A stretch of 64,000 nucleotides of DNA from Chloroflexota bacterium (lineage in GTDB: Bacteria > Chloroflexota > UBA11872 > VXNJ01). A program made the position numbers and the translations under genes. Positions 4,239 to 53,467 of the stretch are shown in pieces (the first letter of the stretch is position 1; each line of letters starts with the position of its first letter). The stretch spans positions 2,943,300 to 3,007,299 of the forward strand of contig OZ253578.1 of the NCBI GenBank assembly GCA_965263025.1. The letters run 5' to 3'. The notes below the pieces were generated by a model. That model did no database searches and was not told the origin of the DNA. It saw only the letters and a program-made list of their open reading frames with translations.

Positions 4239-4470
4239 GGCTTCCTCTCTTCGAAGTCGGGTCGGACTAGTCGCGGCGGGAGTTCCGACCGCCTCTCCGA
4301 TACGCGCAGTTGGGGTTGTGAGAGACTAAACGACTCGCTGAAATCGCGCGACCGCCGTTGGCTTGAAGGCGGAGTCGCGGCGATTGCGCGGGTTTGCTAA
4401 ACGTCTTCGCGGGTCGGTATGTTTGACACGTCGGATTTGACCGCTCGCGCGCGGATCATCAGGAGGCAAA

Positions 4471-4962
4471 TTGGCAGGGTATTACCAGTGGCGAACCCCA
4501 GAGGGCCGGCGGCTGACGATCGAGGAGGTGCGTGGGCATCTGCTCGTCTGCAACGGCTGCTGATGCGGCTCGGGCGCAACGCTGTTTCGCCCGCCAGTCC
4601 TCGTCGAGGACTACGAAGCCGGCATGGAAGAACGCCAGATCGATGAAAAAGTAGACCTGACCATCACCGACGATTCGGGCGACGGTTGCCTCGGCTTGTG
4701 CACTCCGTCGAACGTTGCCCTACTGGTCCTGCAGGGCAAGAGTCTCTGGTTCGGCCGGATGAACACGCGGCGGAGTATAAGCCTGCTTCTGGACTATCTG
4801 GCCGAAGTCGCCGATGACGAAGATCCGCCGCTTCCGGAAGGTGAGCTCGCCAAGCACGCATTCACCAGAATGCGGGGCGAAATGATGCCGATCGAGGACG
4901 TGCTAAAGCCCGGCCGCGACACGCGCCTGCCAAGACCGGGAACCTTGATTTCGCCCGAATAA
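4471..4962 (+). CDS. thioredoxin-like [2Fe-2S] ferredoxin-family protein with one in-frame TGA (candidate selenoprotein, alternatively a pseudogene)
   Basis: A TTG at 4471 lies 4 nt after AGGAGG (4461-4466). The frame is continuous to 4962 except for the TGA at 4561-4563, which sits inside C-N-G-C-TGA-C-G. Downstream are GCLGLC (C-x3-C) and a hydrophobic strand with LWFG. The ORF track shows only the part from 4624. Confidence 0.5.
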
Positions 4963-24152: not shown

Positions 24153-24725
24153 ATGGGTTCCGTGGGCGTTCTTGCCGTTCAGGGAGACTTTATCGAGCAC
24201 GTTCACGTATTGCGGCGGCTCGGACGGTCGTTCGGCGAAGTCCGCCTGCCCGAAGACCTGGACAAGGTTGACGCCCTGATCATTCCAGGCGGCGAGAGCA
24301 CGACCATCGGCAAGCTGGCCGACCGGTTCGGGCTTACCGAAGCGATTCGAGAGCGAACTCTCGAAGGCATGCCTCTGTGGGGCACGTGCGCGGGCATGAT
24401 TTTCATGGCGAAGAACCTGGGCGCGCATCGCCAGTCTATGCTGCAATTGATGGACATAGGCGTGGAGCGCAACGCGTTTGGCGCCCAGCTCGACAGTTTC
24501 GAGACCGATTTACCAATCAGCGCGCTTGGCGACCAGCCCTTTCACGCCGTGTTCATTCGCGCGCCGATTATCGAGCGCGTGGGAGAGGGCGTAGAGGTTC
24601 TCGCCAGGCTGTCCGATGGGCGGATCGTCGCGGCGGAGCAGAAAAACCTGCTGGCGACCGCCTTTCACCCGGAGCTCACCGACGACGCACGGTTCCACGA
24701 ATACTTTGTGGACAAGATCGGCTGA
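24153..24725 (+). CDS. pdxT: pyridoxal 5'-phosphate synthase, glutaminase subunit
   Basis: 190 aa with GVLAVQG, the catalytic GTCAGMI, and FHPEL. It lies directly downstream of pdxS. Confidence 0.9.
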   Translation: MGSVGVLAVQGDFIEHVHVLRRLGRSFGEVRLPEDLDKVDALIIPGGESTTIGKLADRFGLTEAIRERTLEGMPLWGTCAGMIFMAKNLGAHRQSMLQLMDIGVERNAFGAQLDSFETDLPISALGDQPFHAVFIRAPIIERVGEGVEVLARLSDGRIVAAEQKNLLATAFHPELTDDARFHEYFVDKIG

Positions 24726-31024: not shown

Positions 31025-31969
31025 ATGAAGATCGTCGCATTGACGACACATATAGCAGGCTATCTGGATTCGGTGCAGGATGCCGCGCCCGAGGCCGAAA
31101 TCGTCGAGGCGCCTGACGATGACGCGATGCTTCGTGAGGTGGTTGACGCGGAAGTCCTGTTCGCTGGCATATTCAGCGAAGATCTCCTCGAAGCCGCCGC
31201 GCAGCTCAAGTGGGTGCAGATCTCTTCCGCGGGCGTCGAGTGGATGCCGAAGCAGGCGATTGCGAACAAAGGCTGGCAAGTAACGAACGCCGCCGGCATC
31301 CACGCCATCCCGGTAGCCGAAACGGCGATCGCGCTTTTGTCGGGCGTTGCGAGACGCGTCGACTGGACTACTCGAAACAGGGTCAAGGGAGAGTGGGTCA
31401 GGCCGCCGGGCATTTTTGAATTGTTCGAAAAGACGGCCGGCGTAATCGCAATGGGCGGCATTGGACGGGCGTTCGCCGAACGCGCCCGCGGCCTCGGGAT
31501 GCGGGTCATCGGAGTAGACGTAAACCCGGCCGCGAAGCCTGAATACGTGGATGAGTTGCGAGGGATCGAGGAGCTGGAGTGGCTGCTCGGAAGTTCGGAC
31601 GTCGTCTGCATGACCGCTCCGGATACGCCCAAGAGCCACCACATGATGAACGCCGAGCGATTCGCCCAAATGCGGCAAGGGTCGATTTTCATCAATGTCT
31701 CGCGCGGCGGTCTGGTGGACACCGACGCGCTTGTCGACGCGATCGATTCGGGAAGGTTTTTCGGAGTGGGTCTCGACGTGATCGAAGGCGAGCCGCTCAG
31801 GTCCGGCCACCCGATCTGGAGTCGCGACGACGTGCTGATCACGCCGCACATCGGGGGGACGAGTCCGCGACGACCCGAGCGCATGATCGAACTGTTTACC
31901 GAAAACCTGCGGCGCTACCAGGCGGGCGAACCGCTGCGGAATCTGGTCGATCTAAAAGCCGGGTTTTAA
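31025..31969 (+). CDS. D-isomer-specific 2-hydroxyacid dehydrogenase family protein
   Basis: 314 aa with the NAD fold GVIAMGGIGRAF, plus the downstream R...E...H catalytic context (NVSRGGLVD, ITPHIGG). Confidence 0.8.
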   Translation: MKIVALTTHIAGYLDSVQDAAPEAEIVEAPDDDAMLREVVDAEVLFAGIFSEDLLEAAAQLKWVQISSAGVEWMPKQAIANKGWQVTNAAGIHAIPVAETAIALLSGVARRVDWTTRNRVKGEWVRPPGIFELFEKTAGVIAMGGIGRAFAERARGLGMRVIGVDVNPAAKPEYVDELRGIEELEWLLGSSDVVCMTAPDTPKSHHMMNAERFAQMRQGSIFINVSRGGLVDTDALVDAIDSGRFFGVGLDVIEGEPLRSGHPIWSRDDVLITPHIGGTSPRRPERMIELFTENLRRYQAGEPLRNLVDLKAGF

Positions 31970-52420: not shown

Positions 52421-52518
52421 TGGCGGAGGTGCATGGGAGTCGAACCCACCGACGACGTATCGCTACGCCGCCCAACGGATTTGAAGTCCGCGGAGCCCAC
52501 CGGAACTCTTGCACCTCC
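52421..52518 (-). tRNA. selC: tRNA-Sec (anticodon UCA)
   Basis: 98 nt on the minus strand:
- 8-bp acceptor, GGAGGTGC/GCACCTCC.
- 6-bp D stem, GAGTTC/GGGCTC, with 4-nt loop CGGT.
- Anticodon loop CTTCAAA.
- Variable arm of about 22 nt.
- T arm GTGGG-TTCGACT-CCCAT.
- Discriminator G and an encoded CCA. Confidence 0.9.
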
Positions 52519-52566: not shown

Positions 52567-53202
52567 TTAGCTGTCGGCGCCAGCCCCCACCGTGAAGCTG
52601 ACCCTGCCGGATACTTCCCCGTCGATTAGTATCTCGGCCTCGAATTCGCCCGCGCCGCCGCCGGGATCGAAGTAGAACGCAAAAAAGCCGCGCGAAAAGG
52701 CGCTCTGGGGTCCGGTCTCAAAGGTGAATACTACCTCTCCGTCGCGCTTCCAGGTGACGCCGAGCACCGCTCCCGACCGAACTCCTTTAAATTCCGCGGA
52801 GACGTATACCCGCTCGTTAGTCCCGAAACGGTCGGCGGGGTCGACCGGCCGCTGAAGCGTGTCGATGCCGCGGGCGGTGGTAATCCTGCCCACCGAACCG
52901 CGCTCGCGCGTATTCGTGATAGTGGGAGTGGACGTTGCCGCGGGGGTTGCGGCAGGAGTCTCGGTCGGGGTCGTTTGCGGTGGAGCGAGCGTCGGCGTTG
53001 GACTGGCGAGCGTCGACGTGGGGGGTACGGTTGCCGTGGCCGTGGAGACTGGGGTTGAGGCCGGTGGATCGGTGGCCGGAGGCGGTGCAGCCGTTCCGGA
53101 GGGCGTCGCGGCAGCCTCCGCGTTATCGCCCCCGATTTGGCAGCTAAGGAGCATGGCGGCGGCCGCCATCAGAAGTATTACCGTCAGCGGTTTGACGGGC
53201 AT
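52567..53202 (-). CDS. lipoprotein with Thr/Pro-rich linker and C-terminal beta-rich domain, unknown function
   Basis: I moved the start to the ATG at 53202, giving MPVKPLTVILLMAAAAMLLSC with lipobox LLSC. A roughly 75-aa T/P/A-rich linker follows, then a roughly 110-aa domain. An alternative start is at 53226. Confidence 0.6.
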   Translation of the reverse strand: MPVKPLTVILLMAAAAMLLSCQIGGDNAEAAATPSGTAAPPPATDPPASTPVSTATATVPPTSTLASPTPTLAPPQTTPTETPAATPAATSTPTITNTRERGSVGRITTARGIDTLQRPVDPADRFGTNERVYVSAEFKGVRSGAVLGVTWKRDGEVVFTFETGPQSAFSRGFFAFYFDPGGGAGEFEAEILIDGEVSGRVSFTVGAGADS

Positions 53203-53467
53203 CGTTGCCCGGTATCCCTTTAGCATGACCGGGATTCGAGATGTTGCATCCACGCGGATACGTCCTCGAATGTAGTCGCGAGCTACTCGCTCGCGCAGCT
53301 TTCTCATCTTATGGGTATCGCCGCTCGACTTCTCGGTACGAACACTACGATCCTTATAAGGTTCTAACACACGATCTTTGTCGATGGTTAACATCGAGCA
53401 TAAGATTGAATCAAACAACGCTTGGGCCAGGGGCGACTTCATTCGTTGAAACGGATCGGATACTCAT

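Follow-up and report, generated by a model that had tools for sequence, protein, structure and literature searches.

Does the TGA at 4561-4563 of a 64-kb stretch of Chloroflexota DNA (contig OZ253578.1; hereafter the window) end a short peptide, or does it encode selenocysteine (Sec) within a longer protein? The codon lies in the reading frame of a small gene at 4471-4962, and a preceding sequence-only reading had favored Sec, placing the TGA in the cysteine cluster of a thioredoxin-like (TRX-like) [2Fe-2S] ferredoxin, followed by a hairpin resembling a selenocysteine insertion sequence (SECIS). Comparison with related loci and proteins indicates that 4471-4962 is most likely one intact gene for a 163-residue selenoprotein. 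The Sec-encoding nature of the gene, taken alone, is most likely and merits somewhat more confidence than the whole explanation, in which the product is a predicted TRX-like [2Fe-2S] ferredoxin with Sec31 as a reactive residue beside the cluster. This whole, mechanism included, we regard as quite probable on the sequence evidence. Below, loci of relatives carry L-numbers and homologous proteins P-numbers.

The TGA codon in related genes and proteins

The frame opens with TTG at 4471-4473 and closes with TAA at 4960-4962, with the TGA as its only in-frame interruption. Its product reads ...RGHLLVCNGC*CGSGATLFRPPVLVEDYE...DGCLGLCTPSNVALLVLQGKSLWFGRMN..., in which the residues right after the TGA are CGSGATLFRPP. 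On re-reading, every coordinate of the sequence-only reading (the AGGAGG box, the TTG, TGA and TAA codons and both hairpins) proved correct, and its translation on both sides of the TGA was reproduced as given. TGA terminates 10 of the 39 long open reading frames (ORFs) of the window, indicating a standard genetic code; a reassigned code, already discounted in the earlier reading, is thereby ruled out.

A word-indexed protein search returned only seven relatives, all of them gene calls beginning after the TGA. The DNA of their loci was compared with that of five loci from Chloroflexota metagenome-assembled genomes (GTDB representative genomes) and of a divergent second clade, giving 15 distinct sequences. 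These form two clades of Chloroflexota and metagenome sequences with differing synteny. The TGA occupies the identical codon in all 15, and the peptide around it is conserved as ...RGH[LI][LMFI]VC[ND]GC-TGA-CG[SAT]G.... An equivalent upstream TTG or GTG start is likewise kept in 15/15, with a GGAGG box in the loci whose upstream DNA was read. Across the 29 codons 5' of the TGA, third positions account for 25 of the 40 variable sites, and in six of seven pairwise comparisons more codon changes are synonymous than nonsynonymous. Frame and peptide are conserved on both sides of the TGA with mainly synonymous changes, pointing at purifying selection throughout. Scattered stops and frameshifts were not seen in the relatives, one apparent break in L089 aside.

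A conserved downstream start was not found among the 15 loci. Codon +7 is ATG, TTG, CTG, CCG or GCA, and the position of the window's ATG at 4624 (codon +21) is ATG in 1/15 sequences, that of the window alone. Retention of the TGA in every locus, together with the conserved frame and the lack of a conserved downstream start, argues against a sequencing error, a pseudogene or a two-gene arrangement. At all Sec-type loci, public annotation has unnamed ORFs (79-127 aa) whose non-homologous start codons lie downstream of the TGA. These calls (P0215, P0216, P0218 and P0219, NCBI/ENA copies, and the window ORF 4624-4962) are devoid of two of the four predicted cluster ligands. The product from ATG 4624 had been called incomplete before, and the two missing residues indeed belong to the four invariant Cys. 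Public annotation of the Sec-type genes is a systematic mis-annotation.

The second Sec-type clade comprises L091 (L091:52-441) and L093/L094 (L093:4034-4423, equal to L094:1376-1765) and shows 51-57% identity. Its members have a short C-terminus ending in ...RFR and no DDSGDG insertion, and the TGA column and the CGGGCG/CGCCCG stem are unchanged in them. L091 stems from the same metagenome as L001 and L004; the two Sec-type clades might be paralogues within one genome. A scan of Metagenome_contigs yielded one 5'-truncated gene copy plus one spurious fragment and nothing more. L089:1-360, a metagenome copy of clade A truncated at its 5' end, displays an apparent one-base frame break near fragment codon 25 ('DEKST*'), well 3' of the TGA, which probably reflects an error of assembly or sequencing in a contig of low coverage.

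Cys-type homologues offer a further view of the TGA column. An exhaustive HMMER search was run with the post-TGA part only as query, so that its outcome is unbiased toward any N-terminal motif. It returned 47 relatives, and in 17 of the 19 with an intact N-terminal region the motif V-C-x2-3-C-C-C-G is present, the TGA column corresponding to the middle Cys of the CCC triplet. A follow-up profile search extended the family to 914 proteins at E <= 1e-5. At least 134 of 139 homologues have Cys in the TGA column, and a census of the triplet in the 139 full-length members gave CCC in 136, with LKC, LCC and GCC occurring once each. C27, C32, C73 and C77 are invariant across the alignment, and the columns of C30 and Sec hold Cys in at least 90% of sequences. 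Homology to the full-length Cys-type proteins is continuous across the TGA. The expectation that the codon stands where Sec replaces Cys is borne out by this near-invariant Cys column.

The closest Cys forms belong to a 148-residue Chloroflexota clade, termed P0010-like and represented by MCY4438505.1, which shares the subfamily-specific DDGGG insertion and C-terminal extension. P0189 of this clade reads ICNGCCCGSG, and the local motif common to both forms is CNGC[C/U]CGSG. Neighbour joining recovers the Sec forms as monophyletic in 100/100 bootstraps and places them as sister to the P0010-like Cys clade in 99/100, which indicates one Cys/Sec switch within this Chloroflexota lineage. Sec/Cys orthologue pairs, which the earlier reading had left to be sought, are found in this Chloroflexota sister clade with its CNGCCCGSG.

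The RNA downstream of the TGA and the tRNA-Sec gene

Two hairpins follow the codon (Table 1). Hairpin 1 starts 7 nt after the UGA, and its loop holds a partly conserved inner AAC/GUU mini-helix. The core of hairpin 2, GTCCTC-GTC-GAGGAC at 4597-4611, is extended to 7 bp by the pair A4596:T4612. Over 13 distinct 63-nt segments both hairpins are 100% paired; variation in hairpin 1 is confined to two G-U wobbles, and hairpin 2 carries one compensatory G-C<->A-U change, in 4 sequences. The loop of hairpin 2 is G-U-N in 15/15.

The constraint on this segment extends to positions at which the protein leaves freedom. At four-fold sites, minor alleles amount to 2/58 in stem 1 vs 82/228 outside (Fisher p = 8e-8, kinship ignored), and when counted per site, all four stem-1 four-fold sites are less variable than all 17 outside (Mann-Whitney p = 0.0013). 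Codon +3 is always xCG though the residue is S, A or T, and codon +5 is always Gnn though the residue is A, D, E or G. Frozen synonymous sites and these codon patterns indicate selection at the RNA level rather than at the protein level. In Sec-type genes, the 60-nt segment behind the UGA folds with -20.7 to -26.7 kcal/mol, compared with control means for this segment of -13.8 in 75 Cys-type genes and -17.3 in those of them matched for GC; for the closest Cys form the mean is -13.1. The element behind the TGA appears SECIS-like and specific to Sec-type genes without being a textbook bacterial SECIS (bSECIS), and its two-hairpin layout is a useful test case for SECIS variety in Chloroflexota. 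A second perfect CGGGCG-N11-CGCCCG at 31466-31488 was dismissed as a chance match with no in-frame TGA nearby; this copy sits in ORF 31025-31969(+), within a GxGxxG-type dinucleotide-binding motif.

The selC gene that had been placed in the same window was detected by both ARAGORN and the Rfam model RF01852. Its neighbours are genes for a methyltransferase, a Mur ligase and a FemAB-family protein. A 291-aa ORF directly beside it, at 52567-53442 (-), has no Pfam match. In other Chloroflexota, Sec-type hydrogenases have been reported together with Sec biosynthesis genes (PMC13582414), so the recoding mechanism itself would be ordinary.

A scan of the window for other genes with an in-frame TGA, based on the G+C content at third codon positions (GC3), gave 23 candidates including 4561. 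The other 22, none of them Cys-rich, were judged by eye to be antisense-frame artefacts or same-frame gene ends. Among them, the in-frame TGAs at 24723 (+) and 11628 (+) are flanked by long high-GC3 frames (241+337 and 212+183 codons); judged by eye, each looks like an ordinary gene end behind which another gene happens to continue the frame, and the context is not Cys-rich. Around the gene itself, scans for a sigma-70 promoter and for an intrinsic terminator gave no match. The sequence TTGCTA-18 nt-TATGTT at 4394-4423, ~50 nt 5' of the start codon, agrees with 8/12 sigma-70 consensus positions and lies under the scanner threshold. The stretch holding it (GGTTTGCTAAACGTCTT...TATGTTTGACAC) is near-identical in L001 and looks conserved in L003 and L004. 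The element may be the promoter of the gene.

Predicted fold, cluster site and gene neighbourhoods

Family searches place the protein at a distance from the curated ferredoxin models. NCBIfam release 20 gave fdxn_Clost only, at E = 0.17, and for the family as a whole fdxn_Clost and fdxn_Azotob stay sub-threshold (12-27 bits vs cut-offs of 150-195; up to 3.7e-6). DUF1636 (PF07845) was considered and set aside, with a best E = 0.13 in 1/8 Sec-type members and 14 bits vs a gathering score of 31.6 in Cys-type relatives. The group of the window protein is a distinct family within the fold, outside the curated fdxn families.

Comparison with known structures offers more detail about the fold itself. 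A profile from 8 close Sec sequences gave noise against the PDB, with an RNA recognition motif of PTB on top. A broader family profile matched the HydB-type N-terminal domains 7t2r_B (E = 8.3e-7) and 7q4v_B (1.7e-6) and the A. vinelandii 2Fe-2S ferredoxin 5abr (E = 1.1e-5). An AlphaFold model of the Cys homologue P0010 reached a predicted local distance difference score (pLDDT) of 83.4 and a predicted template modelling score (pTM) of 0.78. In a Foldseek search with this model, ranks 1-13 are all of the TRX-like ferredoxin fold (prob 0.95-1.0, E 1.6e-3 to 3e-2, TM 0.37-0.57), the best neighbours being the HydB N-terminal domain, NDUFV2, Aquifex Fd4, HydC and FdsG. With profile and model searches agreeing, the TRX-like [2Fe-2S] ferredoxin fold first proposed by the sequence-only reading is now solidly predicted for the window protein.

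The profile alignments based on hidden Markov models (HMMs) also suggest where the cluster is held. The family consensus 'VCkgccCG' aligns on 'ICGGTGCT' of the N-terminal 2Fe-2S domain of HydB (NiFe-hydrogenase subunit B), placing V-C27 and C32 on the ligand pair, and G-C73-L-G-x-C77 aligns on GCFGLC or GCHGMC of HydB-type proteins and on GCLGPC of 5abr. This coincidence of the four invariant Cys with ligand motifs indicates by homology that C27, C32, C73 and C77 are the canonical C-x4-C...C-x3-C ligands. Sec31 aligns inside the C-x4-C ligand loop, off the canonical ligand positions, and C30 and Sec31 are the last two positions of this loop.

The neighbourhoods of the two types of genes differ. 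The Sec-type genes are monocistronic among unrelated genes: in clade A they lie between an enolase-superfamily gene and pckA, and in clade B near GNAT, NUDIX, rpsF, ssb and DUF1761 genes. In L002 (4912-5673) the enolase-superfamily gene and the selenoprotein gene are separated by an additional AstE/AspA-family gene; the order MR_MLE - selenoprotein - pckA is otherwise kept across clade A. Among the Cys-type proteins, most best matches are ~280-residue fusions to a nitrile hydratase (NHase) activator resembling NHase_beta_N, and PF21006 fusions make up most of the top 120 matches. One such fusion is the third gene of an NHase beta-alpha-accessory operon. Other Cys-type domains form N-terminal extensions of CobN, and one stand-alone form is flanked by genes for a TonB-dependent receptor and a ZIP transporter, with a CobW/COG0523 GTPase gene nearby (L095:6702-8840, L098:5712-11583 and P0013 together exemplify these contexts). 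The recurrence of Cys relatives attached to or beside CobN, NHase activators and the TonB-ZIP-CobW genes hints at a role in metal-centre assembly or trafficking, which the superfamily probably serves. A literature search for a characterised CCC or ferredoxin domain on CobN or NHase activators retrieved nothing relevant, and the recurrent tie of the CCC domain to metal insertion is seemingly undescribed.

Table 1. Positions in the window of the predicted selenoprotein gene, its parts and the tRNA-Sec gene
Feature	Position	Strand	Remarks
Ribosome-binding site AGGAGG	4461..4466	+	4 nt 5' of the TTG start; read directly
Complete predicted selenoprotein gene, 163 codons (TTG start, Sec codon 31) plus TAA	4471..4962	+	Single in-frame TGA
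Codons C27-N-G-C30-U31-C32	4549..4566	+	C27 and C32 invariant in the family; profile alignment
Predicted Sec codon TGA (Sec31)	4561..4563	+	TGA in 15/15 loci; column = middle Cys of CCC
Hairpin 1: 6-bp stem CGGGCG 4571-4576 / CGCCCG 4588-4593, 11-nt loop 4577-4587	4571..4593	+	Candidate SECIS component
Hairpin 2: 7-bp stem AGTCCTC/GAGGACT, triloop GTC	4596..4612	+	Candidate SECIS apical hairpin
Codons C73-L-G-L-C77 (C-x3-C)	4687..4701	+	Predicted ligands 3 and 4; G-C-L-G-x-C invariant
selC (tRNA-Sec, anticodon TCA)	52421..52518	-	ARAGORN; Rfam RF01852, 75.3 bits vs gathering score 47

Proposed role of Sec31, its alternatives and known systems

We propose that SelB with Sec-tRNA(Sec) would read the UGA at 4561-4563 as Sec, with one or both hairpins serving as SECIS. 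The product would then fold as a TRX-like [2Fe-2S] ferredoxin in which C27, C32, C73 and C77 hold the cluster, as in NuoE/HydB-type domains, and Sec31 and Cys30 would lie inside the first ligand loop (C-N-G-C-U-C), right beside the predicted cluster. Sec usually marks a catalytic redox residue. Sec31 together with Cys30 can be read as a redox-active or soft-metal site, and Sec31 is most likely a reactive residue of the family-specific CCC motif rather than a plain cluster ligand. The pair Cys30-Sec31 could act as a vicinal selenenylsulfide couple that exchanges electrons with the cluster, or as a soft-metal-binding site. By analogy with known systems we tentatively suggest a selenenylsulfide centre wired to the [2Fe-2S] cluster in a TRX-like ferredoxin of ~160 residues, that is, a minimal Fe-S-driven module for thiol/selenol or soft-metal hand-off; this specific form of the proposal is possible, with the odds against it.

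Several observations weigh against the explanation as a whole. Pfam and NCBIfam scans of the window protein gave no above-threshold match; the modelled protein is the 35%-identical Cys homologue P0010, from which the fold of the window protein is carried over; and the Sec-type genes have no metal-related neighbours. Neither selA, selB nor selD was found in the 64-kb window by tblastn with approximate E. coli probes, which makes for a weak negative, and none of them is adjacent to selC. In the window sequence alone the hairpin is modestly unusual, with a fold z-score of -2.05 in DNA of 62% G+C, and CGGGCG-N11-CGCCCG with <=1 mismatch occurs 4x in the window vs 2.3 expected, which is not beyond chance. 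Covariation is weak, with one truly compensatory pair, because the compared sequences are close. The Rfam SECIS models gave no match in a scan of the region even at E <= 10.

The published bSECIS consensus allows a more direct comparison, asking for an apical loop of 3-9 nt, a stem of 4-16 bp, a G in the first two loop positions, a distance of 16-37 nt from the UGA and a fold whose minimum free energy (MFE) is no higher than -7.5 kcal/mol (PMC13188914). Hairpin 1 has an acceptable spacing (17 nt with the inner helix), and its loop is 11 nt, or 3 nt whose first two positions lack a conserved G. Hairpin 2 has the right 7-bp stem and G-U loop, and its spacing of 39 nt is 2 nt beyond the 16-37 range, its own MFE being -5.4 to -8.6 kcal/mol. 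Neither hairpin alone satisfies all published bSECIS criteria. The claim of a SECIS-like hairpin stands for both hairpins as regards conservation and restriction to Sec-type genes, and falls short as regards full agreement of either one with the consensus.

Were the TGA a true stop, translation of the locus would give a peptide of 30 residues and a C-terminal protein with its own start, or the locus would be a pseudogene or an assembly error. Gene callers do annotate the downstream part only, with products of 111-127 aa, and an ATG follows the TGA in some loci. Against this, no downstream start is conserved, the ATG at 4624 being unique to the window, and the only conserved ribosome-binding site and start lie upstream, at 4461-4473. 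Full-length Cys homology runs across the TGA, the downstream product has only two of the four invariant Cys, and the same TGA recurs in assemblies made independently, from different samples and in different studies, which show no further stops or frameshifts except the apparent L089 break; we consider a true stop extremely unlikely. Hairpin-stimulated read-through without Sec, in which a near-cognate tRNA-Trp or tRNA-Cys would place an ordinary amino acid at position 31, could draw on the imperfect fit of the hairpins to the bSECIS consensus with no Rfam SECIS match, and on the failure of the approximate probes to find selA, selB and selD in the window. It is opposed by the tRNA-Sec gene in that same window and by the Cys in the homologous column, a classic Sec/Cys pair. 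Moreover, if Cys were intended, a change of TGA to TGC or TGT would be expected somewhere in the clade, yet TGA is kept in 15/15, and Sec-type hydrogenases with Sec biosynthesis genes are reported from other Chloroflexota (PMC13582414). Such read-through is very improbable.

A larger share of doubt concerns the role of Sec31, which might itself be a metal ligand. It would replace C32 or C30 in the [2Fe-2S] cluster, or all six Cys/Sec would bind another centre ([4Fe-4S], Co/Zn), in which case Sec would adjust the redox potential or affinity of that centre instead of serving as a redox residue in its own right. An exchange of ligands among loop cysteines, which would fit such a role, is reportedly documented for the TRX-like ferredoxin of C. 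pasteurianum. Six Cys/Sec positions, two more than a 2Fe-2S cluster needs, are conserved, three of them consecutive within the ligand loop, and catalogued Sec residues occur in predicted metal-binding motifs of CopZ-like 2Fe-2S-binding forms, a CobW-related selenoprotein and HgcB (PMC13188914). The four invariant Cys, in contrast, coincide exactly with the canonical C-x4-C...C-x3-C of HydB/NuoE-type domains. Furthermore, Lys occurs in the Sec column of one homologue (P0020, LKC) and Leu or Gly in the column before it, whereas C32 is constant, and Sec usually marks a catalytic redox residue. A ligand role for Sec31 appears unlikely on these grounds, and a reactive residue beside a conventional four-Cys cluster is the reading we prefer.

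Recognising the Sec codon restores the full protein, including the half of the predicted metal site missed by public annotation. The earlier reading knew of no Sec-containing member of this ferredoxin family, and none appears in the sources consulted here. No curated selenoprotein model of NCBIfam release 20 matches the window protein. A catalogue of prokaryotic selenoproteins from May 2026 has no TRX-like ferredoxin, CUC, CxxCU, DUF1636, CobN, cobalt, nitrile hydratase or Chloroflexi entry, and its sole '2Fe-2S' entries are CopZ/BFD-like (PMC13188914). Both the selenoprotein family and the Sec position within a predicted Fe-S ligand loop are most likely new, as far as these comparisons of sequence reach. 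The predicted gene adds a family and a fold class, the TRX-like [2Fe-2S] ferredoxin, to the bacterial selenoproteome. Sec normally stands at the residue that does the chemistry, so its position here points to the middle Cys of CCC as the functional centre of a widespread uncharacterised domain found in at least 914 proteins and offers a concrete target for mutation. If Cys30-Sec31 is a redox centre, Sec would mark the catalytic position of the CCC domain found with CobN, cobalt/iron NHase activators and COG0523/ZIP clusters, pointing at an undescribed redox or metal-transfer step in metal-centre assembly.

Several known systems resemble parts of the preferred arrangement, a reactive Cys30-Sec31 pair beside a [2Fe-2S] cluster. 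In the Csac_0668 / CopZ-like BFD-type selenoproteins (cd10141, motifs GxUC and CU; PMC13188914), Sec likewise lies in or beside a predicted 2Fe-2S Cys motif, with a 'CU' dipeptide; their fold is BFD-like, not TRX-like, and they show no Pfam or NCBIfam similarity to the window protein. Ferredoxin:thioredoxin reductase, whose Sec form (CxU motif) is catalogued as NF041072 (PMC13188914), offers an analogy only: an Fe-S cluster adjoining a redox-active dithiol or selenol-thiol couples one-electron donors to two-electron chemistry. It differs by its [4Fe-4S] cluster and unrelated fold, and NCBIfam gives no match between it and the window protein. The G-C-U-G centre of mammalian thioredoxin reductase is similar, again by analogy only, in its vicinal Cys-Sec pair flanked by Gly (here G-C-U-C-G). 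Vicinal Cys-Sec geometry can form an eight-membered selenenylsulfide ring. In thioredoxin reductase the pair sits on the flexible C-terminal tail of a flavoenzyme of unrelated fold, whereas here it would lie in an internal loop of an Fe-S domain.

Closer in sequence is the Cys-type 'CCCG' domain family, annotated as '(2Fe-2S) ferredoxin domain-containing protein', 'nitrile hydratase accessory protein' or 'cobaltochelatase CobN', which has the V-C-x2-3-C-C-C-G and G-C-L-G-x-C motifs in common with the window protein. It differs by Cys in place of Sec and by the lack of post-codon hairpins, and many of its members are fused or stand in metal-trafficking clusters, in contrast to the stand-alone Sec-type genes with their unrelated neighbours. 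The TRX-like [2Fe-2S] ferredoxins proper and their homologues in NuoE/NDUFV2, HydC, FdsG and the HydB N-terminus (PDB 1m2b, 5abr, 7q4v_B, 7t2r_B, 7p5h_C, 6vw8_C), share the predicted fold with significant profile similarity and have C-x4-C...C-x3-C at the end of strand 1 and before strand 3. Relative to them, the window family has extra N- and C-terminal beta-hairpins, the DDSGDG insertion and Sec, and it adds two conserved Cys/Sec within the C-x4-C loop, as part of its CCC motif.

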